A stretch of 63,826 nt of DNA, filler included, from Welwitschia mirabilis (lineage: Eukaryota): assembly GCA_051453625.1 (NCBI GenBank). It is 9 parts of one record of this genome, joined end to end, with 100 filler letters (N's around TTAATTAATTAA, not from the genome) between each part and the next. Parts side by side here need not be neighbours in the genome. Positions count along the whole stretch, not along the records: positions 20,593 to 29,492 come from JBOZIK010000001.1; 8 more parts are not named here. One strand, 5' to 3'. The position numbers and the translations under genes were made by a program. The notes under the pieces are model-generated. The model did no database searches. It saw only the letters and a program-made list of their open reading frames with translations, and had not been told where the DNA came from. The first letter of the stretch is position 1. Each line of letters opens with the position of its first letter. Below are positions 2,030 through 62,478 of this stretch, piece by piece.

Positions 2030-3685
2030 AAGAAAAATGCCTTTGCTTGGATACATAAAGGCTTAGATGCCATTCCTCTTTTCATAGTTTAACATAAAAT
2101 CTATCTTGAGGACAATGCTAAACNNNNNNNNNNNNNNNNNNNNNNNNNNNNNNNNNNNNNNNNNNNNNNNNNNNNNNNNNNNNNNNNNNNNNNNNNNNNN
2201 NNNNNNNNNNNNNNNNNNNNNNNNNNNNNNNNNNNNNNNNNNNNNNNNNNNNNNNNNNNNNNNNNNNNNNNNNNNNNNNNNNNNNNNNNNNACTTTAGAA
2301 AACTCAATGAGGTTACAAAAAAAGATCATTTCCCTTCTCCTTTTCTTGATCAAGTTGTTAATAGAATTTAAGGTTACACTTATTATTATTTTCTTGATGG
2401 GTTTAGTGGCTATAATCAAATTTACATAGCTAGTGAAGACCAATCTAAAACGATCTTCACATCTCCCTTTGGAATCTTTGCTTTTAAATGAATGCCCTTT
2501 GGACTTTGCAATGCTCCTGGAACTTTTCGACAAGTGAGGATAAAAATATTTTTGGATATAATAGAAGCCTCTATAGAAAACTTTATGGATGATTTTTCCA
2601 TCTTTAGTGATACTTTTGAATAAACTATGCTAAGATTAGAAAAAGTCCTTAATAAATGTATTAAAAGTGGATTGCATTTAAGTTGGAAAAAGAGTTTCTT
2701 CCTTATTTAACACAGGACTATTTTGGGTTACCACATTTCAAAGGAAGAGATTAGGATGGACTCCATAAAAGTAAATATCATTAAAAATCTTAATCCTCCA
2801 GCAAATATGAAATAAGTTAGGTCTTTCCTTGGATATGCAGGTTTTTACCGATAATTCATCCATGACTATGCCAAAACTTGTAAACCTATTCACTCTTTTC
2901 TTGAAAAAGATGTCAAATTTAAGTCGTCTGAGTTAGGGGGGAGGATTCTCTGTCAAAAATATGAGAATGGATTCAAAGTCATATCTTACCTTAGCAAAAC
3001 TTTGACTAATGCCCAAACCAACTACACTACCACTGAAAGAGAAATGCTTGCTATCATTTTTTGTCTAGATCATCTTTGATACTATCTTCTTGGATTTCAC
3101 ATTAATATCTACACAGAACATGCCACCATCCGTTATCTCATGACTAAAAAAGATTGCAGTTCCAGACTTATTAGATGGATCCTTTTAATGCAAGAATTTA
3201 ATATTACCATCATTGATAAGGCTAAAAAACATAATAGTATGGCAGACCATCTTTCTTGACTTACTTGCTCCATTGATGAAAATCCTATTAATGATTCTAT
3301 TCTTGATGAGCGACTCTTTGTAATTAAACAAATGTATGCTTTTCTTTCTTCTCACCTCACTCCTTGGTATGTTGACATTGTCAATTATCTTATGACTATG
3401 AAAACCCCATAGCATTGGAACCAAAATTAATGAAAAACGTTTATCCATAGGATTGGTGACTATGAGTGGAATGAGCCACATCTTTATATACATTGCAGAG
3501 ATCAAATTATGTGTAAATGTATGTCTGAATGGGAAACTTTAGAAATTTTAATAGTTTATCATGCTGAAGTTTGTAGGAGACAATTTAGTGGCCAAAAGAC
3601 CGCCATGAAAATACTGCACTTGGGATTCTATTGGCCAACTCTTTTTAAGGATTTATTTAACTTTTTTTTGAAGTGTGATGCTTGT
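2030..3685 (+). pseudogene. pol: RT, RNase H, integrase zinc finger
   Basis: FLDGFSGYNQ, MPFGLCNAPGTF, FMDD (2582-2593), NYTTTEREMLAI, RLIRWILLMQEF, GFYWPTLFKD..KCDAC. Many stops. Confidence 0.92.
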
Positions 3686-3729
3686 NNNNNNNNNNNNNNN
3701 NNNNNNNNNNNNNNNNNNNNNNNNNNNNN

Positions 3730-3741
3730 TTAATTAATTAA
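3730..3741. other. Artificial contig linker TTAATTAATTAA (also at 8066, 13221, 20537, 29537, 53182, 59695, 62423)
   Basis: Identical self-complementary 12-mer with stops in all six frames, centred in 100-nt N blocks. Confidence 0.95.
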
Positions 3742-5056
3742 NNNNNNNNNNNNNNNNNNNNNNNNNNNNNNNNNNNNNNNNNNNNCTTTACTTTATGGAT
3801 TTTAGTATTTGTTTTGACATGGTAGCATATAAGTTGTTGTATTTTAAACAATTTTTTATTTTATCATTCATTGTTTGATAACATTAGCATATTTGACATC
3901 ATTATAATCATTTCCCTATTAAGTGGAACTCTACAAATTTATACATTATGTCATGCATCATTATTCAAGTGATTTTATGATTGTTATTATAGGAATTTTT
4001 TAGGGCTGCATTTAGGATAATAACGCAATTTTCTTTATGTTTCTAGTTGTTTATTTTTATTTTGTTTTTTCTTAGTTGTTTTCTTGGAATTTTCAAAGTT
4101 ATTTCCTTATACATTTTCAAGCATTATATCATGGCCCTAAGCATTTTATAGTCTCTTGTGATGTTTTCTAGAGGATGGTTGTTTCTTTCTAATAGGTTCC
4201 TTAATATAATGAGTTCTAGCTTTGTATGCATTTGGGCATATTTGAAGCATATTTAAGTAGTATTATTTTTCCCTTAGTGCATTTTTCCTCTATGATCATT
4301 TTCTATTTCTCCATCATGCATTCACACTTTAGGCTCTTTATTCATTTTATCTCTTAGGCCGTTCTCTCCTTTCCATTGCATTCCTGCATTTTCTAATTTT
4401 CTGAGTATTTCAAGTTTCATCTTCCTCTCCATATCAGCTATTTTGGAGTATGTCATCTTCCTTCATCATCCTCATGACATAGGAGATGACACTCCCTTGT
4501 TTGTTTTAGGTGTAATTTGGGATGTTTTACTTCTCCACTGAGGGGGATAGGATGCCTTTCTGGGCATTAATCTAGTAAAAATTAGCACACAACTTTTAGC
4601 AGTCCTAATCTTTTATGACTAAATTTTAATGAGTTGTTTTTAATGCGTTATTCATAAAATTTAAATAAATTTTTTAATTTGAATAAAATTTTGAGCACAT
4701 TCATGCACTTTATCATGCAGGATCCAGGAGTACCTACACATGTCTGCTATAGCCATGTTTTTCTGATCGCCTGAATCATGCAATATAAAAACTACTTAAG
4801 TTGTCATGATGATCCCGATTATACATACATGGCTTCACTTTTTAAGCCATCAAGTTTTACTTCATGATTTCTATATGTGTATTGCATTCATTCCATAGTG
4901 ACATTCTTAAGTAGAGGGCTTAGGAAAATTTTTAGGTCTTGTATTAATTACCTACTAATAATATCATTTTCTATGGACTTAGTTTATAGGCATTATTTTT
5001 ATCTTAAACAAATTGGTTAGCAATCAAGTTAATTGCTTACTTTGTTAGAGGCTGAC

Positions 5057-8021: not shown

Positions 8022-8121
8022 NNNNNNNNNNNNNNNNNNNNNNNNNNNNNNNNNNNNNNNNNNNNTTAATTAATTAANNNNNNNNNNNNNNNNNNNNNNN
8101 NNNNNNNNNNNNNNNNNNNNN

Positions 8122-10723: not shown

Positions 10724-12699
10724 TAGCCCCCTACTTAGCCTTGGCAGTCCTTGATAAAGTAAGTGATTAACTAGATTACGAGCAATTTGTTTAAGATAAA
10801 AATAATGCCTATAAACTGAGTTCATAGAAAATGATAATAATAGCAGGTGATTGATACAAGTACTAAAAATTTTCCTAAGCCCCCTATTTAAACATATCAT
10901 TATGAAATGAATGCAATACACATATAGAAATCATGAAGTAACCTTGATGACTCAAAACTAAAACTATGTATTCATGATCTAGATCATCATGACCAATTAA
11001 ATAGTTTTTATATTGCATGATTTAGGTGATCAGAAAGACATGGATATAGAAAACATGTGCAAGTACTACTAGATCCTACATGATAAAGTATGTGAATGGG
11101 CTAAAAATTTTATTCAATTTATATGAAGAACGTGTTAAAAATAACTCATCCAAAAATTGATCATAAAAGATCAGGGCTAGTAAAAGTTCTGTGCTGATTT
11201 TACTAGATTAACGCCCAGAAAGGCATCTTATCCCCTCCCCCACTCCTAGGAGAAATAAAACTTCCTAGATTGTACCTACAACAAAAAGGGATGTTATTCC
11301 CTATGTCATGTAGATGAGAAAAGAAGATAAAAGACTCCAAAATAGCTGAGATGGAGAGAAAGATGAGACCTAAGAGATAAAATGAAGAAAGAACTACGAA
11401 AGTAAAGGCATGATGGAGAAGTGGAAAATGACTGTAGAGGAAAAATACACCAAAGGAAAAATACTACTCAAAGATGCCTCAAATGTACCTGAACGTATAA
11501 AAATCTAGAACTCATCAGATCAAGGAAACCTGTCAGAAAGGACCAATCATCCTCTATAAAACATCACAAGAGACTAGACAATTCTTAAGCTCATGATATA
11601 AAAAAGTATAAGGAAATAACTTTAAAAATTCCAACAAAATAACTAAAGAAAAACAAAATGAAAAATGGATAAATAGGAACATGAAGAAGATTGCATTACT
11701 ATCCTAAATGCTCTCTTAACAAATTCCTATAGTAATAAGCATAAAATCACTTGATTCATGATGCATGGCATAATGTATAAATTCATAAAGTTTCACTCAA
11801 TAGGACAATGATTATGACGATGTCAAGTATGCTAATGTTATCAAATGATGAATGATAAAATACAAAGTTGTTTAAAATATAAGAACTTATAAGCTACCAT
11901 GTCAAAACAAACACTAAAATCTATAAAGTAGAGTGATCATGTGGAATTACTAGAAATAAAGAAATAAAGAAAAGTGATTTATTGTTTCATGATGAGGGGA
12001 GTGAAACCACTGTCAGAGGAATAAGAACTCACACAACATGGCCAACTGACCCCTCAGTGGAGTTTCCACAACTATCATATCACACTGCCAAAGGCTCATC
12101 TCGGGAAAATTTACCCTGATGCACTTGTGGTAGGACATCTTGATTATCATGTGTGTAAGGATATAACATGAAAGAGCATGAGAGTTAATTTTTTTTTTCC
12201 TTCCTTCTTGTTTTTTTCTTTTTTTTTAGATGAGTATCATTCCACATGATTAAGTACTTGTAAGGATAAAAGTGAAGAAATGAGATGAGTAATAAAATAA
12301 GATCCTGCAAGAACAACTAATTACTTACATTATTGAAAGATAACAAAAGAATCAAAACATCTTCTTATAGACATACGAATGTCTAAAAATTGGATTAAGC
12401 TAATTCTTATCATTGTAAATGCCTAAAGTAAAATATTACTCATCATAGAAACTTTATAAGTAAATACAGATGTTAAGTTAAAGATGTTCAAGTGATAACA
12501 TGATGTTAACCAAAGGAATGAGTTAAGAAAGAATTTAGATAATGGCAAAAGNNNNNNNNNNNNNNNNNNNNNNNNNNNNNNNNNNNNNNNNNNNNNNNNN
12601 NNNNNNNNNNNNNNNNNNNNNNNNNNNNNNNNNNNNNNNNNNNNNNNNNNNAATGATTTACAAAAGAATTAGATAATGGCAAAAGAAAGGTCCTTCTCT

Positions 12700-13615
12700 T
12701 GAATAGGGAATTCCAAAATAGGTGCTTCTATCATGTTCAAGATTTTGTTCGAGAATGACTCATAAAGCTTTAACCTTTTTCCATTGACTTTTTGGATTTG
12801 TTTAGTGTTTAGATCAGAAATTTCAACTAAGCCATTTAAGTGTACTTTTTTGATAAGATAAGGGCCTAATCATTTTGAAGTTAACTTGTTATGTAGAAGG
12901 TGTACTTGGGTGTTATACAACAAGACAAATTGGCCAGGTTTAAACTATTTATGAATAATCTTTTTATCATGTCAAAACTTGGCCTAATTCTTCGGAATAA
13001 GTTGACGATGTAGAACATGAATATGTTTTTCATCTAGATGGTTGAGTTGGGCTAAACAATTTTTGAGATTTTCATTAGGTTAACAAGGTTCAGTTGATGG
13101 GTGGAATGATAAGAATTATATTAAACATCAACTGATAAAATACATACTTTACTGTACATAAGCTCATAAGGTGAGANNNNNNNNNNNNNNNNNNNNNNNN
13201 NNNNNNNNNNNNNNNNNNNNTTAATTAATTAANNNNNNNNNNNNNNNNNNNNNNNNNNNNNNNNNNNNNNNNNNNNGGTTAATGAAATTGGTACCTTGAT
13301 CACTGATGATAATACATGGAAATCTAAATCATTAAAAAATATGAGTTCAAGCAAAGTTATACATAGTTCAGGCATCATGTTTAGTGGTAGAAGTATCTTT
13401 AACCCATTTAGTAACATAATCCATAGATACTAAAATATAATTTTTCTCATTATAAAATGGTAAAATTGGGTCCACAAAGTCAATTACCAATAATCAAAAG
13501 GTTCACATTCAAGTATAGGTTTGAGGAGCATATCATGATAATGAATGAAACTACCATAATGTTGACAAGCATCAAACTTTTGAGAAAAATTAAATGAATT
13601 CTTAAAAAGAGTTCA
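12700..13615 (-). pseudogene. Integrase core and GPY/F region
   Basis: Minus strand reads ILECEPFDYW..DFV, KPGQFVLLYNT, KLTSK*LGPY, KVNGKRLK. Confidence 0.85.
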
Positions 13616-15285: not shown

Positions 15286-15288
15286 AAT

Positions 15289-15306
15289 TGGTACTGTTGC
15301 TGGGGA
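15289..15306 (+). promoter_or_regulatory. PBS, tRNA-Asp type
   Basis: TGGTACTGTTGCTGGGGA versus the Athila consensus TGGCGCCGTTGCCGGGGA (4 transitions), 3 nt after the LTR CA. Confidence 0.85.
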
Positions 15307-19000: not shown

Positions 19001-20852
19001 TTTTAGAGTTAAAAGTTCATGCATTTGCTTGGTCTGATAATGATCTATTAACCATTCCCACTTCCATTATGTAATACAAAATCTACCTCAAAGAAAATTT
19101 CAAACCTGTGAGCGAACCCTAATGTAGACTAAATCTAGCCCTAAAGCAAATCATAAAAAATGAAATTATAAAACTTATGGATGCTAGAATCATTTACTCT
19201 ATTGCTGATAGTGAGTGGATTAGCCCCTTGATAGTAGTATCAAAAAAGGGTGGAAAATGGGATATGTGCATAGATTTCCATAAGTTAAACAAAGTCACTG
19301 AAAAAGACCACTGTCCTTTACCTTTTCTTAATCAAATTCTTGATAGGAGTCAGGGACATGCTTTCTATTATTTTCTTGACGGTTATAGCAGTTACAATCA
19401 AATGTTCATTGCCCTTAAGGACCAAAACAAAATCACTTTCACTTCTTCTTGTGGCACCTTTGCCTTTAGATGCATGCCTTTTGGACTTTGTAATGCTCTC
19501 GGTACCTTTCAACATGCTATGATGGGCATTTTTTCTAATATACTTGAGGATTCCATCAAGATTTTTATGGATGACTTCTCTATCTATGCCAAAATCTTTG
19601 AAAAAATCTTAGATCGTTTAGAGAAAGTCTTAAATTGATACATTACTAGTGGCCTCCACTTGAGTTGGGAAAAGANNNNNNNNNNNNNNNNNNNNNNNNN
19701 NNNNNNNNNNNNNNNNNNNNNNNNNNNNNNNNNNNNNNNNNNNNNNNNNNNNNNNNNNNNNNNNNNNNNNNNNNNNNNNNNNNNNNNNNNNNNNNGGTTA
19801 GATCTTTCTTTGGTCATTGTGGTTTTTACTGTTAGTTTATTAGTGATTACGTTTCTATTTAAAAACCTCTTTACTCGTTACATGAAAAAGATGCCAAATT
19901 CAAATGGAATGAATCTTGTTAAACTTCTTTTGATAGGCTTAAACAGAGATTATCTGATGCTCCTATAGTAATGAGACCCAATTGGATACTTGACTTTAAG
20001 CTTATGTGTGATGCTAGTAATTTTGCTGTGGGTGGGGTTCTTTGCCAAAAATATGAGAAAGAGTTTAAAGTTATATCTTACCATACCAAGACATTGTCTA
20101 GAGCTTAAATGAATTATACTACTACTAAAAAATAAATGATTGCTATTATCTTTTACCTTAATTCTCTTCGACATTATCTTTTAGGCTATCACATGAATGT
20201 TTATACCAACCATGCTGCCATTCATTACCTCATGACTAAGAAAGAATCTAGTGCCCATTTGATTAAATGGATCCTCCTTATGCAAGACTTCAATCTGACC
20301 ATCATAGGTAAAACCAGGAAGCATAAGTCTATTGACTACCACTTATCTCAACTTCCTTCTCCTCTAGATGATATTCTAGTTGATGATACATTTCATGATG
20401 AGCATTTCTTCATTGTTTCTTCTTCTCATCCTTCTCCATTATATGCTGTTGCGGTGTGAATTCATGCAATCGTGAAGTCCTTAGGTAAACCTNNNNNNNN
20501 NNNNNNNNNNNNNNNNNNNNNNNNNNNNNNNNNNNNTTAATTAATTAANNNNNNNNNNNNNNNNNNNNNNNNNNNNNNNNNNNNNNNNNNNNTTCTTGAG
20601 TGTGAACCTTTTAATTATTAGGGTATTGATTTTATGAGCCCTTTTCACCCATCTTCTTGTAATAAAAATTACATTTTAGTGGTTATTAATTATGTGACTA
20701 AATGAATTAAAGCCATACCTACTTCTTCGAATGATCCCGAACTATTTGTCATTTTCTTTGATCACATATCTTTCATAGATTTGGCTTTCCTAGAGTTATG
20801 ATTAGCGATTAGGGTACTCATTTCATAAATTCACTTTTCAAGAAACTTCTTT
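16069..20852 (+). pseudogene. gag-pol of B1
   Basis: Gag CDLCKDSYHIMKECP knuckle, ALIDIGASVNIM, SEWISPLIVV, FLDGYSSYNQ, FMDD, CDASNFAVGGVL, integrase GIDFM...RFGFPRVMISD*GTHF. Confidence 0.92.
20447..20492 (-). repeat. Family A LTR terminus inserted between RNase H and integrase of B1
   Basis: TGTTGCGGTGTGAATTCATGCAATC...AGGTAAACCT is the reverse complement of the LTR A 3' end. Cut by a gap. Confidence 0.8.
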
Positions 20853-23437
20853 TNNNNNNNNNNNNNNNNNNNNNNNNNNNNNNNNNNNNNNNNNNNNNNN
20901 NNNNNNNNNNNNNNNNNNNNNNNNNNNNNNNNNNNNNNNNNNNNNNNNNNNNNNNNNNNNNNNNNNNNNNNNNNNNNNNNNNNNNNNNNNNNNNNNNNNN
21001 NNNNNNNNNNNNNNNNNNNNNNNNNNNNNNNNNNNNNNNNNNNNNNNNNNNNNNNNNNNNNNNNNNNNNNNNNNNNNNNNNNNNNNNNNNNNNNNNNNNN
21101 NNNNNNNNNNNNNNNNNNNNNNNNNNNNNNNNNNNNNNNNNNNNNNNNNNNNNNNNNNNNNNNNNNNNNNNNNNNNNNNNNNNNNNNNNNNNNNNNNNNN
21201 NNNNNNNNNNNNNNNNNNNNNNNNNNNNNNNNNNNNNNNNNNNNNNNNNNNNNNNNNNNNNNNNNNNNNNNNNNNNNNNNNNNNNNNNNNNNNNNNNNNN
21301 NNNNNNNNNNNNNNNNNNNNNNNNNNNNNNNNNNNNNNNNNNNNNNNNNNNNNNNNNNNNNNNNNNNNNNNNNNNNNNNNNNNNNNNNNNNNNNNNNNNN
21401 NNNNNNNNNNNNNNNNNNNNNNNNNNNNNNNNNNNNNNNNNNNNNNNNNNNNNNNNNNNNNNNNNNNNNNNNNNNNNNNNNNNNNNNNNNNNNNNNNNNN
21501 NNNNNNNNNNNNNNNNNNNNNNNNNNNNNNNNNNNNNNNNNNNNNNNNNNNNNNNNNNNNNNNNNNNNNNNNNNNNNNNNNNNNNNNNNNNNNNNNNNNN
21601 NNNNNNNNNNNNNGACTTATGTATTACTCTTTGAAATATCATAATTAGTTTTATACTTGGGCATTTACAAGTGGTAAGATTGGATTCACCCAATCTTAAG
21701 ACATTTCCATATCTATGGGCTGTATTTACAGGAAGATGCCTTAGTTTCTTGTGTTCTTTTCAATGATGTTTAAATCTTAAGTTATCTGAGAGTGTTCTTT
21801 TTCTGTCTTTTATCTTACTTATTCGCCTTTATCTTTTTTAAGTGCATGATCATGTGGGAATTATCCTTTTTATTCAAAAAAAAAGAAAAAAAAGAAAAGA
21901 AAAAAAAAAGTAAAAAGCATGATGTCCTAACGCAAGTACACTGGGGTAAATATTTCTGAGAGGAGCCTTTGGTAGTGTATTATGGTAANNNNNNNNNNNN
22001 NNNNNNNNNNNNNNNNNNNNNNNNNNNNNNNNNNNNNNNNNNNNNNNNNNNNNNNNNNNNNNNNNNNNNNNNNNNNNNNNNNNNNNNNGTATTTACAGGA
22101 AGATGCCTTAGTTTCTTGTGTTCTTTTCAATGATGTTTAAATCTTAAGTTATCTGAGAGTGTTCTTTTTCTGTCTTTTATCTTACGTATTCGCCTTTATC
22201 TTTTTTAAGTGCATGATCATGTGGGAATTATCCTTTTTATTCAAAAAAAAGAAAAAAAAGAAAAGAAAAAAAAAGTGAAAAGCATGATGTCCTACCGCAA
22301 GTACACTGGGGTAAATATTTCTGAGAGGAGCCTTTGGTAGTGTATTATGGTAACTATGGGAACTCCACTGGGGGGTCAGCTGGTTATGCTTTATGGGTCC
22401 TTACTCCTCTAATAGTGGGTGCACTCCCCTCATCATGGCATAAGAAATAAAACTTCTTCCTACTTGATCATTTCACTTTTGAAGATTCCGATGAATTTGT
22501 AGGTAGAAATATATGAGTCCATTTCTCAGTAGCTTTTGGTTTTGACTTTCATTATTCTGTTCAATTTACACTATGGATATCACCATAACCATTACCTTTT
22601 TAGTATGAACTTTATGAAGTTAATACATTTTGTCATGCATCTTTACTTAGGTAATGTTATGATGTTTTCCTTTGGAGTTTTCTATGTTAGTACTTAGGAT
22701 AGGTAAACAATCTTCTTCTTATTCATTTTGTTTATTTTCACTCTGGTTTTCTTCTATTTTCGAGTCTATTATTTTAAAGTTATCTCTGCATTTTCTTAAT
22801 TTTTCTTAAGACTTTAATCATTTAGTAGTTTTATTGCTATTCACTCACAAGTTCCCTTATCATTTCTTTAGTTTTTATCTCTAGAATGCTTTCATCTTTT
22901 CTGTTTTAGCACATTTATTCCAATATTTCTTGCAATCTTTCATTTTTGCATTTTTCTTTTTCTTTTTCCTTAGGATTTTCCATTTTTGTTAGTTTAGGAA
23001 ATTTGGGATGCATTGCATATTTTAAGTAGGGGGCAGAACATACATATTATTTCAGTATTTCTGATAAAAAATTTTTTTGATTATAACAAAACATTATTGT
23101 AGGTCCTCCTTTTAAACTAGTTATTTATTAGTATTGTTTTATTAACAAAGTGTTTGATTTTTGTCATAGGTTTCAGATCTTGAAAATCTTTTGAGGAGCT
23201 TATCATTTTCATCCTCGTCCAGATGACATACCAGACGACCAATTTTACTATTACTTTATAGGTATTTTTGAGTTTTTAAATTTTTTAGAAATTTAGTCTA
23301 TTATTGAAATATGTTCCAAATTTTTATTAGATGCTTTATTTAGATATCCTAGCTATTTTTATCGTCTAAAAGTTATCTCATAGATATGGTTTACTTCCTA
23401 GTTTTGTCAGGGACTGATAAGGCTAAGTGAAGGACTA

Positions 23438-24919: not shown

Positions 24920-27900
24920 TTTCATGGTAGTCTTTTTGCCACTAAAGTGTCCCCCACAAACTCCACCATGATTAAGTGTTAAAATTTCTAAAGTTTTCCA
25001 TTTAAGCATACATTTATGTATAATTTGGTCTTTTCAACATCTATAAAGATGTGGCTCATTCCACTCATAGTCACCAATCCTATGGAGAAAAGTTTTTCAT
25101 TGATTTTAGTCCTAATGTTGTGGGTTTTTCATAGTTACAAGATAATTAACAATGTCAGTATACCAAGGAGCAGGGTAAGAAGAAGAGATAGTATACATTT
25201 ATTTAATTGCAAAAAGTTGCTCATCAAGAAAAGAATCATTAATAGGATTTTCATCAGTGGATTAAGTAAGTCAAGGAAGATGTCTACCACACTATTATGT
25301 TTTCTAGCCTTATCAATGATAGTAAGTTTAAATTCTTACATTAAAAGGATCCATCTAATAAGTCTTTCTTGGAATCTTTCTTGGTCATAAGATAATGAAT
25401 AACAACATGGTTTATGTAAATATTTGATGTGGAATCCAAAAAGATAGTGTCAAAGATGATCTAGACAAAAAATGATAGCAAGCATTTCTCTCTCAGTGGT
25501 AGTGTCATTGGTTTTGACACTAGTCAAAGTTTTTCTAAGGCAAGATGTGACTTTGAATCCATTCTTATATCTTTGACCAAGAAGCCTCCCATAGCAATGT
25601 TTCTTGCATCGCATATAAGTTTAAAATCTTTATTCTAATTAGGACCCATGACAATAGGTTCGAAAGAGATTTTATCCTTAAGGGTTCTAAAAGCAATTTG
25701 GCATGATTCAGACCACTCAAATTTGACATCTTTTTCAAGAAGAGAGTGAAGAGGTTTATAAGTTTTGGCATAGTNNNNNNNNNNNNNNNNNNNNNNNNNN
25801 NNNNNNNNNNNNNNNNNNNNNNNNNNNNNNNNNNNNNNNNNNNNNNNNNNNNNNNNNNNNNNNNNNNNNNNNNNNNNNNNNNNNNNNNNNNNNNNNNNNN
25901 NNNNNNNNNNNNNNNNNNNNNNNNNNNNNNNNNNNNNNNNNNNNNNNNNNNNNNNNNNNNNNNNNNNNNNNNNNNNNNNNNNNNNNNNNNNNNNNNNNNN
26001 NNNNNNNNNNNNNNNNNNNNNNNNNNNNNNNNNNNNNNNNNNNNNNNNNNNNNNNNNNNNNNNNNNNNNNNNNNNNNNNNNNNNNNNNNNNNNNNNNNNN
26101 NNNNNNNNNNNNNNNNNNNNNNNNNNNNNNNNNNNNNNNNNNNNNNNNNNNNNNNNNNNNNNNNNNNNNNNNNNNNNNNNNNNNNNNNNNNNNNNNNNNN
26201 NNNNNNNNNNNNNNNNNNNNNNNNNNNNNNNNNNNNNNNNNNNNNNNNNNNNNNNNNNNNNNNNNNNNNNNNNNNNNNNNNNNNNNNNNNNNNNNNNNNN
26301 NNNNNNNNNNNNNNNNNNNNNNNNNNNNNNNNNNNNNNNNNNNNNNNNNNNNNNNNNNNNNNNNNNNNNNNNNNNNNNNNNNNNNNNNNNNNNNNNNNNN
26401 NNNNNNNNNNNNNNNNNNNNNNNNNNNNNNNNNNNNNNNNNNNNNNNNNNNNNACTTAAATGTAACCCACTTTCAATACATTTATCAAGGAATTTTTCTA
26501 ATCTTAGCATAGTTTATTAAAAAGTATTACTAAAGATGGAAAAGTTATTCATAAAGATTTCTATAGAGTCCTCTATCATATCAGAAAAGATTTCCATCAT
26601 GGCTCGTTGGAAAGTTCCAAGGGCATTGAAAAGTCTAAATGGCATTCTTTTAAAAGAAAAAGTTCCAAAGGGAGATGTAAAGGTGGTTTTAGCTTAGTCC
26701 TCACTTACTATACAAATTTGATTATAGCCATTATACCCATCAAGAAAATAATAATAAGTATGACCTTGGATCTNNNNNNNNNNNNNNNNNNNNNNNNNNN
26801 NNNNNNNNNNNNNNNNNNNNNNNNNNNNNNNNNNNNNNNNNNNNNNNNNNNNNNNNNNNNNNNNNNNNNNNNNTGCTATGCAAATTTGGTTATAGCCACT
26901 ATACCCATCAAGAAAACAATAATAAGAATAACCTTGGATCTTATCAAGAACTTGATCAAGAAAAGGTAAAGGATAATGATCCTTTTTGGTAACTTCACTA
27001 AGTTTTCTAAAATCAATTCACATCCTCCATTTTCCTCCCTTTTTTGGTACTACTATTAAAGAACTAGCCCATTCACTATCTGCAATGGCATAAATAATTT
27101 TGACATCTATAAGTTTAATGATTTTGTCTTTAACAATTTATTTAAAGGCAGGTTTTAATCTTCTTTGGAGTTGCCTAACTAGTTTAAAATTATCCTCAAA
27201 ATAGATTTTATGTTGAACTATGGAAATAGGAATGGCATCTTTATCCAAGAAAAGGCATTTTTATTTGATTCTAATAGAGAGGTCAAATTTTATTCTTATT
27301 GAGGAGTGAAAAAGTCATTAATTATCAGAGGTTTCATTTGATTTTCAGATAAGAATATATATTTTAGACTTTTGGGTAACTGCTAGAGCTCATAGTTGTT
27401 AAGTTAGGATGTCATCCCATCTATCGTGGGGACGACAGGGAGAGAACAACATTTTTCAAAAAGTTTTTCTATTGAAAATAGATGTTGGGTTTCTTCCTCA
27501 TCATTAAGAACTTCATTCTTAGATTTAAAACAATCTAGTTTAGTTGGGTTATCATACAAAGTTGGCTCATATAACATAGTTAATCTCTCTTCTAAGGGTT
27601 GATGTTATAAAAATAAAGTTGAACTCAAATAATCTTCAATGTTAAAATTAATTCCTATGTTCTTTTTAATAACGTTAAAAATCCTAATGGTAATTTCTTT
27701 GTTGTTAAAGTAGTATCTCATTATTCTAGATTAACTATCAATGATACAATGATCTGTAGCACAAAAGGATCTTCCTAAAAATAGTGGATACCCTCCATCA
27801 TGATTTATTTCAATTATAACCACATCAATGGGATAAAAATCCTTCTCAATTTAAATGACTAGGTCCTTTATAATTCCTAATGGTTTCTTGATTGAGATGT

Positions 27901-29492: not shown

Positions 29493-29933
29493 NNNNNNNN
29501 NNNNNNNNNNNNNNNNNNNNNNNNNNNNNNNNNNNNTTAATTAATTAANNNNNNNNNNNNNNNNNNNNNNNNNNNNNNNNNNNNNNNNNNNNTAAAAAAC
29601 ACAAATTTATAGAAACACAAAAAATAGAGAACGGTTGTCCTGAAGTATTGTGGGGACAATAAAAAGGATGATGAAAAAATTATTTTATGAAAAATAAAAA
29701 TGTAAAAATACATAAATGTATTAAATTTTTCAGACTGCCATCCTCTCAATTCATGGGCATGACAGAATGGATGATAGAGAATAAAAAGAAAATGCAAAAA
29801 TTTAAATGGTAGATATAGATCTACTTTAACCTAAAATAGAAAAATACAATACTAATTTGAAATAAATACCTGAATAGAAAAAATTTAAGATACCTACTTG
29901 ATTAGTGATAATCCTCTTAGCTCCTTGTGCCCT

Positions 29934-32200: not shown

Positions 32201-32910
32201 AAATAAAAGGAAAAGCACAAGGTTAATGATTTAATCACCATACTTTCTAAATGAACATCCTTTAGTTAAGCATGCACATCCTCCTGTTGGTTGATAAAGT
32301 ACATTTTGATAACTTCCATAGATAATGACTCTCTGTGAATGACTAAAAACCATTATGATATTAAAGCATTCATTTAACATCCATGAAAAATAAATTAGAA
32401 GATTTCATAAGATGATTTAATTTATACTTGCACTTTTCTAACTCTACTGGTAGATGAAGCAAACCGATATTGTTTGATGGAATCATTTTGATCATTGATA
32501 AAATTGGCTAAATCTGAATTTGAATAAAATTCTAAGATTGTAGATTTCATGCAGTCCATCACTCTTTTCAGCCAAGTCAAAAAAAAATAAAATAAAATAA
32601 GCTTTGTAAATTTAGCTTGGAATAGCAGGTCAAGCTCATTCTTCTTTGGCTTTCTATTTTTAAAACATGTGCCTAACGAAGATATGATTAATTCATAGAA
32701 TCTCTTCTATTACTAAGCAAGCTCAAAACATTTAGTTAAGAAATATGAAATAAGCCACGTCATTTTACAAAACTTAGTAATCCATACCAGATGCCTACTT
32801 AAGCAAATAAGAAGCACCTTCTTCCACATGTCTGTTAGATAAACCCTTAATTTATGCGCTAATCTATCATATCCAGTAGTACATCTAGTCTTGCCAAAAT
32901 TCTTTCACAG

Positions 32911-40459: not shown

Positions 40460-43400
40460 AACACATTCACTTGGCATTACAAGGATATGCTAGGTATTGA
40501 CAAGTTAATTATCATGCATAACATTATTTTAAAACTGAATTCAACCCCCTTAAAATAGAAGATTAGAAAACTTAATCCTCACCTTACATTGGTGGTAAAA
40601 GAAGACTTAGAACATCTTCTAACTATAGGATTCATTAGATCAGTTGACTACTCAGACTGATTATCAAACATGGTAGTTGTTTTAAAGAGGAATGCTCAAA
40701 TTAGAATTTTTATCGATTATCAAGACTTGAATAAGGTAACTCTAAAAGATGATTACCTTTTACTGAACATTCAAATTCTAGTAGGTAATATAGCTGGATA
40801 TGACCTTCTATCCTTTATAGATGTTTATTCAGATTATAACTAGATATTTATCAATCTTAAAGATCATTACAAAACTACCTTTATAACACCTTGGGTACTT
40901 TTTTATTATGTTATAATTCCTTTTGGACTAAAGAATGCTAGTGTAACATACCAACGAGTGATGATATACATATTTTACAACTTGATACATTACAATGTAA
41001 AAGATTATGTTGACGACATTGTAGTAAAATCAAAGATAGTAGATAATCATCCAACCAATTTGAGGCAATTATTCAAGTAATCAAGATGATTCGATTTATG
41101 ATTCAACCCAAAAAAATGTGTTTTAAGCCTATCATCAAGAAAACTTTTATATTTTATGGTTTCAAAAAAGATTAAAGAAATAACTAATATATCACAACCC
41201 TAAAACTTGAAACAATTACATAGTATTAAAGGTAGACTACAAGTTAGACATTGATTCATCTCAACTTTAATGGATTGATGTAAACCTTTTATGCATCTAC
41301 TCAAGAAAGACAACCAATTGAAATGGGATGAAATTTATCAAAAGGCTTTCGATAAGATCAAGGAATACTTAACATCCACCACTGTCTTAAGTTCGCCTAG
41401 GCCTAATTAACCCTTTTACCTTTACCTTGTGTATACACCATTATTACTTAATGTAATGATTTTTCAATGATATGAATTATACTGAAATCACTTGATTTAC
41501 TACATTAGTAGAATACTTCATTAGTATGAGAAAAATTACACTAAATTAGAATACTTCATTAGTATGAGAAAAATTACACTAAATCAGAAAAAACATGTTT
41601 GAGTTTAGTCTTCACTTCATAGAGATTTTGCCATTATATGGTGACAAATAAAATAATGATGATCAATAATCAGAATCTACTCAAACATTTATTTGAATAG
41701 TTTATTAAAAGTACTCATCTAATCAATTCTCACTGAGTTTGATTTGGAGTTTCAATCCCAAAAATCTATCAAGGGTAAATGCATAGTTGAACATATAGCA
41801 GACCTACCTATAGAAATTGAAGGTGAAATATTAGATGAATTTGAATAATTTTCAGATGAAGAGATTCACTTTGTCAAAATTAAAAAGAAATGTAATGTGT
41901 TAATGTTCTTTAATGGTGCATCAAATAGAAAACAGTGATTTTATAAGAGTATTTTTTTTTAAATAAAAAAATGAATTTACCATTCCCCTTTAAGTTGAAT
42001 TTCCCTTGCACAAATAACATTGCTAAATATGAAGCTTTATCAAGAGGAATAATCCTTTCTATTTAAGTTGGTTTCAAGAGCTTACGTATTTTTAGTGATT
42101 CATAGTTAGTGGTTAACTAAGTGTTAGGTAAATATGAAGCGAGATCAAAAGTTTTAGACCTTTACCTTAAAAAGTTAAAAAGGTTGCTTTCTACATTTAA
42201 CCATTGTGAAATCCTAGCCATACTAATAAGTGAAAATCAATTGTTAATTACTTTGCAATCTTTGCTCAAACTTATTTTAAAAATCTGTCATTCAAAGAAT
42301 TTATCACATGTGTATATGTAAATCGAATGTTTTAGATGAATGACCAATGGTAGCTTATTTGGAATTATCACAAGATGAGGTAAACCAAATAATAAAGGAT
42401 TCTAAAATAATCGATGAATGGTATGACACACTTGTAAATTACCTCACTAATCAAAATCTACTAGAAAATTTTACCTCTATATAAAGACAAAATTTTCATG
42501 ATTAGGCTACATAGTTTACCATGATTCAAAGCCAACTGTACAAGAAGTCAAATGATGGCATCTTACTTAGATTCTTAAAGTTAGGTGAAGAAGCCTATAC
42601 TTTAAAAGAAACATATGCTAGTTTGTGTGATCCCCATTAGGGAGCAAAATCATTACTAATTCATGTTTTAAGATCTAGTTACTTCTGGAAAACCATGAGT
42701 CATGATTGTTTCAGCATGATAATAACCTATCACACTTATAAAATTTTTCCACTTAGGATACATCAACTACCTACTAAATGTTTTCTATCTGATCAGATTT
42801 AAATATTTAGAAAATGGGGTATGGATCTAATTGGTCCAATTACACTGACTTCATCTAAACGACATGCTTACATTATTACTGTAACTAAATATTTTTTAAA
42901 ATGAGTAGAAGTAGTATCTTTACATTAAATAACTACAAAAAAATTCAAAAATTCATCATGGATCACATTATTGCTAGATTAAGTACTCCTTACATTAGTG
43001 TTAGCAATAATAGTCCACAATTCAAATCTATTGAGTTGAAAAATTTCTTGATTAAGTTTGGAATAAAGCATTCCTTTTTCACCCCATGTTATCCTCAAGC
43101 GAATGGTTAAGATAAAGCCAGAATAAAGTAATCATAAACTACCTCAAGAAGTTATTACAGGAAAATTCCAAATCATGACATGAAAAATTACCTTTTGCAT
43201 TATGGGTTTATCATATCTCAGTAAAATGTGCCACAGGAATAACCCATTCTAGTTAATTTATAGTGTTGAGGTAATTTTGCTAAACCAAATCCAAATTCCT
43301 ACACTAAGGACCTTAGTCAAAGATCTCAAATTGTTTAACATTTAAAGGGAAGCATGACTCACCTAGTTAGAAACTCTAGACGAATAAAGGATAAAAGCAC

Positions 43401-43655
43401 TATAACATATGCAACTTTATCAAAAATGAGTGAGTGATGCTTACATCAAATATGTTAACCCATAATCTTACAATATAAGTGAACCTGTCTTAAAAGTAAA
43501 CTTAACTAATAAAATTCAAAATTTTTACCAAATTGATTAGAGCCCTTTATCATATCATAAAAATTTGATAAATGAAGATACAAACTCAAATGTTTGAATA
43601 ACATCAAAGATAAAGAGCCAATAAACTTATTTTACCTTTAACCATACTATCAGTA
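40460..43655 (+). pseudogene. Tat-type RT, RNase H, archaeal-type RNase H, integrase
   Basis: FTWHYKDMLGID, PFGLKNA, YVDD (41006-41017), aRH MFFNGASN/CTNNIAKYEAL/FSDS*LVVN, WGMDLIGPI, TPCYPQANG. Confidence 0.92.
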
Positions 43656-45219
43656 AAACTCATAATTCACATCCCTTTTACTGTATTTTCACTACTGGTT
43701 TTATGCATTTGTTGTTACCATTTCGTCCATGATAAAATGAGATGCATCCATATGACTAATGGTTATCTAGAATAGCATTTTCTTATATATTATACAGGTT
43801 TCACATTTTTCTTGTTTATTTGAGTTTTATAGATCATAACCGATCATATACTTTAACTTTTAATATAGTTACACGTTGATAATTTTCTTACACCACCTGC
43901 ACCTGGTAGATGTCACCTCATTCCTTATCAAGCTTCTCTGATTGACATATCATTCCACAAGGCTCCCCCTATAGAAGATGACAAATATGACAATGATATA
44001 TACCATATCGACCCTCGCTATGACAGCACCTATTTGCCACTTTCTATAACTCATGCCTTTGCACAAATCATTTTATACTACCTTGTTATGAAAAAAATCT
44101 ATTATTCCACCTAAGAATAGCATGTTTTACCTACTTATTCCCTTTCCTTAATAATTTTTCATGTAATTCTTAATTTCTACTTTGCATTCAATCCTTCTTG
44201 AACTTATCAATGATATTTTTCTTAAGTTAATACATCTCATTTCATTGCATTATATCTGGGTATATTTTTATAATAAGTTAATTGTTAAGTGATCAAGGTT
44301 TTATTTTACAAAGAAATGTATTTTGAATGATTTCTTTAAGTTCTTAATTCAGATGCTAAAAAATAACTTAGTGTTAGTGGATAATAGCTGAGATTACATT
44401 AATGATCATCGTAATACTCTTGACATGATAGAAGCAATTGAGTAGGAAGACTCTTTTAATTGAGAGTTGATTCTTCCTTTCATCTTTACCTAAATGACTC
44501 CTTAGCAGAGTTTCTTCATTAAAGTCATTTCTTTGTTTGATCATCGATTTTGTTTNNNNNNNNNNNNNNNNNNNNNNNNNNNNNNNNNNNNNNNNNNNNN
44601 NNNNNNNNNNNNNNNNNNNNNNNNNNNNNNNNNNNNNNNNNNNNNNNNNNNNNNNATCTTGAATTATCTAATATTGAAAGAAAAGCATGACTTACCCAGT
44701 TAGAAACTCTAGACGAATAAAGAATAAAAGTGCTACAACATACACAACTTTATCAAAAATGAATGAGTGATGCATACAACAAGCATATCAATCCATGATC
44801 TTACAACATAGATGAACCTGTCTTAAAAGCAAACTTAATCAAGAAAACTTCAAAATTTTTACCAAATTAGTTAGGACTGTTTATCATGTCACAAAAATTT
44901 AACAAAGGATCATACAAACTCAAAGGTCTGAATGACATCAAAGATAAAGAACTAATAAATTCATTTTACCTTTACCCATACTATTGGTAAAACTCATAAT
45001 TCACATCTCTTTACTACATTTTCACTATTGGTTTCATACATTTATTGTTATCATTTCATTCATGATAAAATGTAATGCATCTATATAACTATTAGTTATC
45101 CAGAATAATATTTTTTTATATATTATACAGGTTTTACATTTTCCTTATTTATTTGAGTTTTACAGATCATGACCGATCATATACTTTAACTTTTGGCATG
45201 GTTACATGTTGATAATCCT

Positions 45220-46602: not shown

Positions 46603-48774
46603 ANNNNNNNNNNNNNNNNNNNNNNNNNNNNNNNNNNNNNNNNNNNNNNNNNNNNNNNNNNNNNNNNNNNNNNNNNNNNNNNNNNNNNNNNNNNNNNNNN
46701 NNNNNNNNNNNNNNNNNNNNNNNNNNNNNNNNNNNNNNNNNNNNNNNNNNNNNNNNNNNNNNNNNNNNNNNNNNNNNNNNNNNNNNNNNNNNNNNNNNNN
46801 NNNNNNNNNNNNNNNNNNNNNNNNNNNNNNNNNNNNNNNNNNNNNNNNNNNNNNNNNNNNNNNNNNNNNNNNNNNNNNNNNNNNNNNNNNNNNNNNNNNN
46901 NNNNNNNNNNNNNNNNNNNNNNNNNNNNNNNNNNNNNNNNNNNNNNNNNNNNNNNNNNNNNNNNNNNNNNNNNNNNNNNNNNNNNNNNNNNNNNNNNNNN
47001 NNNNNNNNNNNNNNNNNNNNNNNNNNNNNNNNNNNNNNNNNNNNNNNNNNNNNNNNNNNNNNNNNNNNNNNNNNNNNNNNNNNNNNNNNNNNNNNNNNNN
47101 NNNNNNNNNNNNNNNNNNNNNNNNNNNNNNNNNNNNNNNNNNNNNNNNNNNNNNNNNNNNNNNNNNNNNNNNNNNNNNNNNNNNNNNNNNNNNNNNNNNN
47201 NNNNNNNNNNNNNNNNNNNNNNNNNNNNNNNNNNNNNNNNNNNNNNNNNNNNNNNNNNNNNNNNNNNNNNNNNNNNNNNNNNNNNNNNNNNNNNNNNNNN
47301 NNNNNNNNNNNNNNNNNNNNNNNNNNNNNNNNNNNNNNNNNNNNNNNNNNNNNNNNNNNNNNNNNNNNNNNNNNNNNNNNNNNNNNNNNNNNNNNNNATG
47401 ATCATGATATATATCATACTTACCCTCACTATGATACCAGCTATTCGTCCCTTTCTATAACTCATGCCTTTGCACAAATCATTTTATGCTACCTTATTAT
47501 GTAAAATATCCATTCTTCCACCTCATAATAGCATGGTTTACATGCTCATTTCCTTTTCTTCAATAATTTATCATATAGTTGTTAATTTCTACTTTGCATT
47601 CAATCCTTCTTGAACTTGTCAATGATACTTATTCTTGAATTAATTCATCTTATTTCATTGCATTATGTCTAGGTACATTTTTATAATAACTTAACTGTTA
47701 AGTGGTCAAAGTTTTATCTTATAGAGGAATGCAATTTAAATGACTTTGTTGAGATTTCTAATTTAAATGCTAAAAAAGAACTTAATGTTAATGAACAATA
47801 AATAAGGTTTTTTTAATGATTATCATAATACTCTTAACATGATAGAAGTGATTAAATAGGAAGACCCTTTTGATCAAGAGGTAACTCTTTCCTTCATCTT
47901 CACCCAAATGACTGCCTACCAACATTTCTCGATTAACGTCATTTCTTTATTTTATTGTCGACTTCATTTGGTCCTATGATAAATTTCATTTGAGTTTTCA
48001 TGAAAGTAGTTTTTCTACTTTAGGATATTTATAGTGATAAGATTGGATTTCACCCACTCTTAATACATTTGTACATCTATGACATTCGGTGCCTTATATT
48101 CTTTTGTCCTAGTATCAATTTTTGTTAAATCTGATACTTATTTTTAGTAGTAAATATTATGATTTACCATATTATTAATCAATCAATGTTTAAAAATAAG
48201 GAATTTAAGTTAATTGATAAAATACCAATATCATGCACAAAAAAAAATTGTGAGGTCCTATCGCAAGTGCACCAGGGCAAATATTCCCAAGAGGGGCCTC
48301 TGGTAGTATGATATGATAGCTATGGAAACTCCACCATGGCATCAGTTAATCATGATCTAGCTTTAGCTTGTAGATCCTTATTCTCTTGGTAGTGGTTATG
48401 CTTCCCTCATCATGGTAGATGATGCTTCTAAAAATTCCATTAACTTGATTTTCCATGACTATGAAGCTATGACTTTATGAACATGTAGAACATATTGATC
48501 ATTGATTAGTAAGTTGTCTAAATCTTATTTACTATTACAGCTGATGATTCAATTGAGTAATAATCCTTCCATCATATTGATACTTCATAGAATGACTATA
48601 GACATCATCATAATTATTGTCCTAGTCACGTAATACTCTGTGTTGTATATCATTGAACCATTGTTAATTACATCAAATAATTTCATGATTCATACCAATA
48701 GACATTGCTATGGTAATATTTAAAGATCTTTAACCAATCTTCTTTAGGTCTCTATTTGTCCATTTCCACCCAGT

Positions 48775-52900: not shown

Positions 52901-53237
52901 TGTGAAGCATAGTTAACTGGCCCTCCAGTGGAGTTCTCACAGCTACTATATTACACTGCCAAAGGCTTCTCTCAAAAATATTTGCCCCGGTGTACTTATA
53001 GTAGGACATCATGTTTTGTACTTTTCTTGCGGTAGGATATCACACACTTAAGAAAGACTAAGGTGAATAAGTAAAGTAAAAGATAGAAAAGAATAATCCT
53101 TGATAACTTAATATTTAGCCATCATTGTAAAAAAAAANNNNNNNNNNNNNNNNNNNNNNNNNNNNNNNNNNNNNNNNNNNNTTAATTAATTAANNNNNNN
53201 NNNNNNNNNNNNNNNNNNNNNNNNNNNNNNNNNNNNN

Positions 53238-59650: not shown

Positions 59651-59999
59651 NNNNNNNNNNNNNNNNNNNNNNNNNNNNNNNNNNNNNNNNNNNNTTAATT
59701 AATTAANNNNNNNNNNNNNNNNNNNNNNNNNNNNNNNNNNNNNNNNNNNNACCATCTACCAACTAATGCTTTGCACATGTCGAAAAAGCTGACTATCATC
59801 TTAATTATCATTCTCATGACATAGAGGATGACCATACTTTTTTGACTGTTGTCTTCTATGTCATCCCCATAATAGTGAGGACAACCAATATATCTTCATC
59901 ATTTTGCTTTAATCATTCTTTATCCAAAAATGGCTTCTTATTTTGAGTATTATTACATATTTTAGCCTACATAGAAGCTTTGTATAATTTTCATAAATC

Positions 60000-62378: not shown

Positions 62379-62478
62379 NNNNNNNNNNNNNNNNNNNNNN
62401 NNNNNNNNNNNNNNNNNNNNNNTTAATTAATTAANNNNNNNNNNNNNNNNNNNNNNNNNNNNNNNNNNNNNNNNNNNN

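Follow-up and report, generated by a model that had tools for sequence, protein, structure and literature searches.

Athila, Tat and Ogre elements, which are non-chromovirus gypsy retrotransposons, make up large parts of many plant genomes, and to our knowledge almost nothing is known of cis signals on their RNA beyond the primer-binding site (PBS) and the polypurine tract (PPT). These two signals are 12 to 20 nt long and have known partners, and their primary sequence is kept across diverged lineages by a fixed partner, not by a fold. In retrovirus-like elements, CTE/RTE elements of about 150 to 400 nt are found downstream of the last gene and ahead of the 3' LTR. The RNA transport elements of mouse IAP (RTE), MusD (MTE) and Mason-Pfizer monkey virus (CTE) are cis-acting, non-coding stretches of retrovirus-like elements that engage host export factors on unspliced RNA, and in mammals those of IAP and MusD allow full-length transcripts to be exported independently of splicing (available sections of PMC12786077). 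According to the same sections of this 2025 review, the RNA export of plant LTR retrotransposons has never been studied directly. Among plant LTR elements, Sireviruses (Ty1/copia) carry non-coding motifs that are highly conserved amid diverged elements, with a GC/CpG island at pol/env and a proposed regulatory role (accessible text of PMC2829016). Splice acceptors for an env-like mRNA have been predicted for Athila and BAGY2 (PMC2829016, in the same text), and these lie just after pol in the sense orientation (PMC2829016 and PMC7264820, as excerpted). In the Tat lineage, the sequence after pol is commonly described as hypervariable (PMC7004042, in its accessible parts).

Here we analyze a non-coding block of about 160 nt in a 63,826-nt stretch of DNA from Welwitschia mirabilis (assembly GCA_051453625.1), the whole of which is referred to below as the window. 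Like the PBS and PPT, the block appears to be kept in its primary sequence and not by a fold, but it is 160 nt long and its partner is putative. CTE/RTE elements have defined folds (available sections of PMC12786077), whereas the block has no supported fold, no sequence likeness to them and no Rfam match. The Sirevirus motifs belong to another superfamily and are short repeated boxes with a CGG-CCG core over about 400 bp (PMC2829016, in the accessible text), in contrast to a single non-repetitive 160-nt unit with fixed edges. The Athila and BAGY2 acceptors resemble the block in position, and the block also holds a pyrimidine run and an invariant AG; however, no RNA joint is seen at this AG, and the conserved span is several times what an acceptor needs, in a comparison of position and general sequence form. 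Literature searches with three 11- to 13-nt block motifs as text returned unrelated papers only, as judged from titles and the starts of abstracts. No description of the block was found in the passages of the literature that were covered; one may exist in the original work on Athila4/Calypso or in that of Macas et al. (2009) on Tat 3' UTRs.

Five full and two cut copies of the block are present in the window, which consists of small contigs chained by N44-TTAATTAATTAA-N44 linkers at eight places and holds many N gaps, so that the adjacency of pol and block is real only within contigs. An nhmmer profile built from the five full copies and run against the window returned them at E 1e-47 to 1e-58, confirming the recurrence that a preceding sequence-only reading had noticed at these sites. 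With the 5' 21 nt of the block, four matches at three or fewer mismatches were obtained, versus none in each of 100 shuffles. Family B contributes copy B1 at 22276-22448 (+; E 3.6e-57, and by alignment), copy B2 at 50926-51098 (-; E 9e-59), to which the reads were aligned, and copy B3 at 52848-53019 (-; E 4e-55), which lies 1,922 nt from B2, where the post-pol segment is duplicated in tandem (repeat families D6 and D8). The full copy of family A, at 11977-12149 (-; E 2.5e-54), is 78% identical to B1, with alignable flanks at 69-71%, and that of a third family, which had been named Tat, is at 48242-48424 (+; E 1.6e-47, and by alignment). A cut copy at 21911-21988 (+; E 3e-21), absent from the list of the sequence-only reading, holds the first 77 nt and stops at a 100-N gap; because it sits in a 98%-identical repeat on either side of this gap (22089-22353 versus 21722-21988), it is probably an assembly duplicate of B1. 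The other cut copy, a 3' part at 62479-62538 (+) found by blastn, is cut by a contig joint, with a linker at 62379-62478 directly before it. A partial copy had been suspected near 62489; the profile alone scores 62485-62531 (+) at only E 0.54, and blastn of 48367-48504 against 62480-62619 (69%, E 1e-6) confirms its presence and its third-family identity.

The exact ends of the block are a 7-nt inverted pair, CATGATG at 22283-22289 (+) and its partner CATCATG at 22431-22437 (+) in B1. Conservation starts at the former, and the island edges coincide in all families. Between these ends, a conserved 5' arm of about 97 nt and a conserved 3' arm of about 41 nt (22283-22379 and 22397-22437 in B1) enclose a spacer (22380-22396) that varies in sequence and length and is 11 nt longer in the third-family copy. 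Two features are given as leads only. The conserved A/T motif TAAATATTT at 22312-22320 (+), with columns 38-44 invariant or nearly so in five of five copies, may be TATA-like inside the GC-rich block, and a pyrimidine-rich run ending in AG and then an invariant TGG at 22398-22415 (+; AGTGG is invariant in all five full copies) has the sequence form of a 3' splice site in five of five full copies.

The carriers are best read as at least three diverged plant gypsy-type families, presumably related non-chromovirus Ty3/gypsy retrotransposons with the block between pol and the 3' LTR. A Pfam scan of 305 ORF pieces gave pol fragments only, namely, PR (757-1062), RH (2855-3256), IN zinc (3434-3685), RT (19123-19635), RH (19923-20456) and RH on the minus strand (25453-25620), and, on the third-family contig, RT (40844-41077) and a weak rve match (43000-43107). 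The third-family block is on the same strand and contig as this RT and this weak integrase-core end, which upholds the placement of the block as sense to the element and after integrase; for the A and B copies, the position downstream of integrase comes from contig order and homology, not from continuous sequence. In family B, the block lies about 1 kb before the start of the 3' LTR, and the B-type LTR starts at 13615/23437. At 15289-15306, 2 nt past the B-type LTR end, a TGG-starting 18-mer looks like a transition-decayed tRNA-Asp PBS and is a candidate for this site. A 9-nt PBS motif gave five matches versus eight expected, a chance level, and a tRNA gene search of the window found none. The Calypso group of the Athila clade has a PBS complementary to tRNA-Asp (PMC1142308, as excerpted). 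By the candidate PBS, at least one family looks Athila-like. The Tat clade is marked by an additional RNase H (aRH) domain (PMC6317226, as excerpted), and no second RNase H was seen in the Pfam scans of ORF pieces, in which N runs and decay interrupt pol. At the protein level, the RT fragment of the B-type contig agrees with that of the third-family contig at 26 of 67 residues (39%), and this fits a third family that belongs to a different clade from the B-type elements, clade name aside.

Relative to its flanks, the block is a sharp island of conservation. In an alignment limited to the five full copies, all from one window, identity between B2 and A is 0.80 in the block versus 0.45 and 0.55 in the 480-column flanks, that between B2 and the third family is 0.68 versus 0.42 and 0.42, and that between A and the third family is 0.68 versus 0.40 and 0.44. 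Conservation is thus above that of the flanking UTR (0.68-0.80 versus 0.40-0.55), and the alignment and identity profile bear out a discrete module common to diverged elements, in the same orientation relative to homologous flanks. Two parts of the sequence-only description need qualification. The GC content of the block is high only by comparison with the sequence around it (0.42-0.49 versus 0.22-0.34), and the flanks do diverge (0.40-0.55 identity), but they contain two weaker homologous islands of 68-78% identity, about 250 nt upstream and about 150-350 nt downstream of the block. Searches of public collections with a two-motif pattern gave no match in viral contigs and none in metagenome contigs. 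A three-motif pattern gave 30 loci in public metagenome contigs, with no true relative among them (best nhmmer E 0.19); 27 of the 30 had no nhmmer match even at E 10.

The differences between families in the block are almost all transitions, which fits, for the most part, decay of inserted copies. Transversions are rare, at 8/155 between A and B2 and 5/154 between B2 and the third family (2.0-5.3% overall), compared with 55/430, 141/951 and 52/303 in pol (13-17%) and 39/316 to 44/204 in the flanks (12-22%). The contrast between the block and pol or flanks is significant (Fisher p 0.014 to 1e-7), and in their transitions the two regions hardly differ for block versus pol (p 0.6 and 0.09), pol and block having been compared on different contigs that may represent different copies of one family. 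By transversions, the 160-nt unit has been kept 3 to 6 times better than reverse transcriptase. At the level of sequence comparison, these counts show that constraint on the primary sequence of the block far exceeds that on the enzymes of the element.

Transcription of the block is indicated by RNA reads, whose depth there is 11 to 35 times higher than over the flanks, with block bins of 17.5, 54.8 and 73.6 in RNA run X14 (five bins below at 2.9-4.6, four above at 0-9.9) and of 9.0, 21.6 and 28.6 in run X17 (0-1.25 in the flanks); these are low depths, summed over both mate directions, from 145 and 49 reads, respectively. Both mate directions are equally frequent in the RNA libraries, so that the depths would fit transcription of either strand. 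DNA depth over the block is about 2 to 2.7 times the flank average, with two flank bins close to the block level. Most RNA reads are less than 90% alike (123/145 and 42/49), and most lie only partly on the stretch (133 and 45). This low likeness and partial overlap indicate that the transcribed copies belong to other families, which share the block alone. At the 3' edge of B2 (50936/50937), 100-104 DNA contigs per run and 11 + 11 RNA reads enter unlike and mutually discordant sequence (agreement of about 0.5), and in thousands of genomic contigs the likeness to B2 breaks off immediately past CATCATG. At the 5' edge of B2, reads seem to be cut just outside, at 51094-51125. The longer spacer form is also present in RNA (loose end 50992, 16 reads), which, as judged by eye, agrees with the third-family copy at 24 of 30 letters. 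Neither a splice joint nor an accumulation of read starts or ends appeared among the 145 + 49 RNA reads, and the invariant AG, at a depth of about 17 reads, showed no RNA joint and no loose end to match.

The reading that we prefer, to which we give somewhat less than an even chance, is that the block is a non-coding, cis-acting post-pol module that acts by its sequence and is read by a conserved host factor. The module would be carried on the sense transcript of the element. Its putative reader would most probably be a conserved factor of the host and not the Gag that the element encodes, because the constraint spans families with deeply diverged proteins. The most likely role would be in the nuclear fate of the full-length RNA, that is, in the choice between splicing and export or in expression of the unspliced genome. 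The location of the module would be that in which retrovirus-like elements put such signals, and no stable RNA fold would be needed. A bolder form, which we regard as doubtful, is that a host RNA-handling factor, active in the export, the splicing control or the translation of unspliced genomes, docks on the block, which would then be an ultraconserved signal common to Athila- and Tat-type elements and either predating their split or passed between them as a cassette.

Constraint on primary sequence with no sign of a fold would also be expected of a DNA-level regulatory island after pol, an internal promoter or enhancer at which host transcription factors drive either an antisense transcript or a sub-genomic sense one that serves an extra ORF further downstream. 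The GC-rich island itself (0.49 versus 0.22-0.34), the conserved TATA-like A/T motif and the CpGs that a transcribed variant keeps where the window copies have TpG/CpA (loose end 50992, by eye) are in line with such a role. So are precedents in the accessible parts of the literature: in env-containing Sireviruses, CpG-island motif clusters just upstream of env have been read as support for an internal promoter (PMC2829016), and Grande, RIRE2 and Retand are reported to carry antisense promoters and ORFs downstream of pol and ahead of the 3' LTR (PMC7264820, PMC11963269). However, RNA reads span the whole block, including its 5' end, and some continue upstream into unlike sequence (loose end 51070, four reads), so that transcripts appear to pass through the block and not to start there. 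Moreover, no molecule-start site is reported in the read data, and no long ORF follows the block in the window copies. We consider such an island unlikely.

The near-identity of the block could instead reflect young common ancestry, if the block had been exchanged recently between families by template switching of co-packaged RNAs or by gene conversion. Transversions between families (2.0-5.3%) are hardly above those within family B (1.3-3.2%), recombination among distant Athila lineages has been reported (PMC2410132, as excerpted), and abnormal strand transfers between co-packaged copies have been proposed for Tat-lineage 3' UTRs (PMC7004042, in its accessible parts). Against this, three families and the genome-wide contigs have their edges at exactly the same base, and random tracts would need selection on the unit to arrive at them. 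There are also several states common to the three B copies and unlike A and the third family (38 family-diagnostic columns), as is expected of vertical descent, and the flanks give the same order of relatedness. Recent exchange is accordingly rated as improbable. Mobility as a MITE was also considered: the 7-nt inverted ends are present, no common duplication was seen by eye beside the five copies, and the five window copies lie in homologous context, whereas genome-wide flanks are discordant and could be those of other element families.

About as improbable is a folded sense-strand RNA serving packaging, dimerisation, export or self-cleavage, which had been the original proposal. A consensus fold can be drawn in which 91.2% of cells pair; the terminal 7-mers can pair, as can the arms that flank the central variable spacer (CCACT/AGTGG, and the G-run with CTCCTC), and eight pairs are changed on both sides, versus 3.9 +/- 1.4 in shuffles (4/500 reach it) and 1-3 in slid controls. 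However, this fold was derived from the same five sequences on which it was tested, and all of the both-side changes are G-C to A-U, the invariable product of two neutral transitions. In the third-family copy, the most decayed row, four both-side-changed pairs stand against six broken ones, and one-sided changes over all pairs keep a wobble in 24 cases and break the pair in 22, the neutral half-and-half. Among these five sequences, covariation in the block is no more than neutral transitions would give. The description of the block as structured likewise finds no backing in folding energy, with sense-strand MFE z values near zero in the five copies (+0.56, +0.61, +0.59, -0.67 and -0.26 versus dinucleotide shuffles) and a consensus-fold z of -0.63, for which 79/300 column shuffles are as good and the antisense strand scores the same. 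The particular helices named in the sequence-only reading are complementary in 92-96% of cells, yet they show 0-1 both-side changes, the same as shuffles, and the supposedly compensatory Tat helix is by alignment one register off the B helix and is therefore not covariation. Rfam (release 15) gave no match in the whole window at gathering score, in agreement with the initial impression of an unfamiliar sequence, and at E <=10 on 22200-22520 only three chance rows (snoZ165, JPX_2 and TUSC7; 13.8-14.5 bits versus cut-offs of 48-90). A ribozyme had been among the suggested functions, and no self-cleaving Rfam family appears even at E 10. The block as a folded RNA is not supported by energy or covariation. 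Long-range pairing with the 5' leader was rejected as well, since the duplex (z -1.7 to -2.0 versus mononucleotide shuffles) extends over the whole length and means little.

A coding remnant, either a short ORF in sense or antisense or the end of a longer one, is very improbable. Copy B2 has an antisense frame without a stop across the entire block (77 codons, 50901-51131), with few stops in other copies, A/B differences of 10, 8 and 18 by codon position and a pN/pS of 0.44-0.60. However, this frame has an ATG in no copy, its pN/pS has P 0.04 for the frame alone and 0.39 with six frames allowed (the best-frame value of 0.45 is reached by 39% of random placements), and a search of 1.84 billion representative proteins gave it a single match, P0001, which is a tandem repeat in translation. 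In the sense direction all frames contain stops, the ATG-started one has a pN/pS of about 0.9-1.8, and an 11-nt indel between families breaks any frame. With no protein relatives and no Pfam match for the block, it is unlikely, judged by its sequence, to be coding. Two further candidates were dismissed, a second PPT with a mini-LTR (a purine run and then TG...CA), since neither the actual B-type LTR start (13615/23437) nor the purine stretch before it resembles the block, and a tRNA or host-RNA origin, as there is no tRNA in the window and no Rfam match.

The strong constraint on a post-pol module that may act by its sequence marks where a conserved partner would act, and it gives a handle for binding and reporter work. 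In practice, the module can also serve as a marker with which decayed elements are annotated and exchange among families is traced. If the doubtful reading as a docking signal for a host RNA-handling factor is true, no cis-acting post-transcriptional element would have been defined in plant LTR retrotransposons before the block, which would be a plant counterpart of the CTE/RTE elements.

Our results show that the ~160-nt block downstream of pol is a discrete, transcribed, non-coding unit under strong primary-sequence constraint across diverged Ty3/gypsy families. Alignment of the places proposed by the sequence-only reading gave five full copies: B1 (22276-22448, +), B2 (50926-51098, -) and B3 (52848-53019, -) in family B, one in family A (11977-12149, -) and one in a third family, there labelled Tat/Ogre (48242-48424, +). 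A profile built on these recovered them and two cut copies, and no others in the whole window, so the proposed recurrence in all three families stands. One cut copy (62479-62538, +) is truncated by a contig joint; the other (21911-21988, +) is probably an assembly duplicate, since it lies inside a 98%-identical repeat of the region upstream of B1 and is broken by a 100-N gap. The first 21 nt of the block gave four matches at ≤3 mismatches versus none in each of 100 shuffles, and the block edges coincide with the inverted pair CATGATG and CATCATG.

In MAFFT alignments of ~1.3-kb contexts, with flanks of 480 columns on each side, identity within the block, the upstream flank and the downstream flank was 0.80, 0.45 and 0.55 for B2 and A, 0.68, 0.42 and 0.42 for B2 and the third family, and 0.68, 0.40 and 0.44 for A and the third family. 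GC content was 0.42 to 0.49 in the block versus 0.22 to 0.34 around it. The block is thus better conserved than the flanking UTR; the flanks do diverge, as had been claimed, except at two weaker AT-rich islands (68 to 78% identity) common to the same families, one ~250 nt upstream (21630-21717, 51279-51347(-), 12367-12453(-) and 47989-48081) and the other 150 to 350 nt downstream (22576-22753, 11646-11824(-), 3874-4104, 48601-48765 and 62689-62932).

Between families, the block differs by 13 to 23% transitions and 2.0 to 5.3% transversions, the flanks by 9 to 16% and 12 to 22%, and pol by 15.5 to 16.3% and 12.8 to 17.2%. Transversions were fewer in the block than in pol for B2 and the third family (5/154 versus 52/303 in RT; Fisher p 8e-6) and for A and B2 (8/155 versus 141/951 in PR-RT, p 5e-4, and versus 55/430 in RH-IN, p 0.0095); block and pol showed no difference in transitions (p 0.6 and 0.09). 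The transitions probably reflect largely C-to-T and G-to-A decay of inserted copies. This suggests that the active lineages carried a nearly identical block despite deeply diverged enzymes, the pol and block stretches compared coming from different contigs.

The window is discontinuous, with separate contigs joined by eight N44-TTAATTAATTAA-N44 linkers (3686-3785, 8022-8121, 13177-13276, 20493-20592, 29493-29592, 53138-53237, 59651-59750 and 62379-62478) and 35 further N runs inside; it is a chain of small contigs whose order and orientation across linkers need not be real. A Pfam search of ORF pieces located, all on the plus strand, A-type pol (PR 757-1062, RH 2855-3256, IN zinc domain 3434-3685), B-type pol (RT 19123-19635, RH 19923-20456) and third-family pol (RT 40844-41077, plus the end of an integrase core, matched weakly at 43000-43107, E 0.012). 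The claim that the block lies downstream of integrase and sense to the element holds for the third family, where RT, integrase end and block are on the same contig and strand. In the A type, the order pol, block, post-block segment is likely, across a contig joint, because the contig following the IN-zinc contig opens with the post-block segment of the other A copy (3786-4073 versus 11646-11933, 85%). B-type LTRs start at 13615 and 23437, and the second of these, the 3' LTR, follows B1 at ~1 kb. The TGG-starting 18-mer TGGTACTGTTGCTGGGGA at 15289-15306 (+), 2 nt past the B-type LTR end (near 15286), is likely a decayed primer-binding site, which we take to resemble a tRNA-Asp site of the Athila/Calypso type. 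Priming by tRNA-Asp is described for the Calypso/Athila group in PMC1142308. As judged from their fragments, B-type and third-family RTs are deeply diverged, sharing 26 of 67 residues, an identity that names no clade.

Several rearrangements accompany these elements. A pre-block segment is duplicated between third-family pol and block (43987-44550 versus 47398-47964, 81%). This and two further tandem duplications of post-pol segments, one in family B (50767-51066 versus 52689-52988; period 1,922 nt, 86% alike, carrying the block twice) and one in the third family (43323-43883 versus 44656-45216; period 1,333 nt), could reflect either assembly collapse or the proneness to tandem repeats that has been described for the 3' region of the Tat lineage. 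At ~48768-48777, ~350 nt past the block, the third-family post-block region meets the end of a B-type LTR on the minus strand, which indicates a nested insertion. A fragment of a host gene or retrocopy sits amid the repeats at 32234-32404 (-), where a 57-aa ORF piece matches ribosomal protein S27e (Pfam E 1e-9).

Reads were mapped on 50000-51689, around B2, at 80% likeness. In two RNA runs the three block bins were covered far more than their neighbors: 17.5, 54.8 and 73.6 in X14 (five bins below, 2.9 to 4.6; four above, 0 to 9.9) and 9.0, 21.6 and 28.6 in X17 (0 to 0.9 and 0 to 1.25). Most reads were less than 90% alike to the B2 stretch (123/145 in X14, 42/49 in X17) and lay only partly on it (133/145 and 45/49), so the transcribed copies belong to other families with only the block in common. 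Sixteen RNA reads at 50992 have the third family's longer form of the central spacer, matching by eye at 24 of 30 letters; at each of the 6 mismatches the reads have G/C and the window copy A/T. Two loose ends (51070 and 50992) reveal at least two further variants with unlike flanks, one with a 1-nt length difference in its 5' arm (by eye), and more families than the window's three therefore carry the block. Mate directions were equal in both RNA runs, so the transcribed strand is not readable from them; no RNA joints or pile-ups of read starts or ends were listed for either on this stretch. The DNA contigs cover two organism labels, X1 and X2. X1 depth was 363,000 to 641,000 over the block versus a nearby-bin average of ~180,000 to 240,000, with two flank bins at 346,000 to 376,000. 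Likeness of DNA contigs to B2 stops exactly past CATCATG, where 100 to 104 contigs per run have loose ends (50936/50937) whose agreement of ~0.5 points to many different flanks.

What the block does admits rival readings. It may act at the DNA level as an internal promoter island, for which Sireviruses offer a precedent, or have passed between families by recent cassette exchange. A folded RNA, as the sequence-only reading proposed, is another rival. None of the five copies was stabler than dinucleotide shuffles (sense z +0.56, +0.61, +0.59, -0.67 and -0.26), the RNAalifold consensus (-28.2 kcal/mol, SCI 0.64) was no better than column-shuffled alignments (z -0.63; 79/300 as good), and the antisense strand scored like the sense. 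The proposed helices are paired in 92 to 96% of cells, yet show 0 or 1 two-sided changes, as in shuffles. The alifold structure has 8 pairs altered on both sides versus 3.9 ± 1.4 in shuffles (4/500); all are G-C to A-U, a change that two transitions invariably yield, and concentrate in the most decayed row, the third-family copy, with 4 such pairs and 6 broken ones. One-sided changes keep pairing in 24 cases and break it in 22. On this evidence from five decayed copies, which give little power, a fold is neither supported nor excluded; Rfam gave no match for the block, in keeping with the view that it belongs to no known RNA family, and no tRNA was found.

The inverted ends would suit a MITE, but every copy in the window occupies the same position within homologous surroundings, and no duplicated target site is apparent. 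With a purine run before it, TG at its start and CA at its end, the block resembles a miniature LTR behind a PPT; this idea was rejected because it is unlike the start of the real LTR and the PPT region there. A coding remnant is unlikely: all sense frames contain stops, the antisense frame open in B2 (50901-51131) and nearly so elsewhere has no ATG in any copy, its pN/pS of 0.45 is matched in 4% of random placements when that frame is taken alone and in 39% when the best of six is taken, an 11-nt length difference between families, also seen in transcribed form, breaks any frame, Pfam gave nothing for the block, and the single phmmer match among 1.84 billion representatives was a translated tandem repeat.

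No description of the block was found in the literature searched, which falls short of establishing that none is in print. On the full-length RNA, the block's position immediately past pol is one where splice-acceptor and export signals are found in retrovirus-like elements. Signals of these kinds are the RTE and MTE of mouse elements (PMC12786077) and the env acceptors predicted in Athila and BAGY2 (PMC2829016). A host factor is the likeliest candidate for a partner that stays constant despite divergence of Gag and Pol. Position and constancy together lead us to favor, at somewhat under an even chance, a host-read signal: the block would be read by a host factor and would govern the fate of the unspliced RNA.
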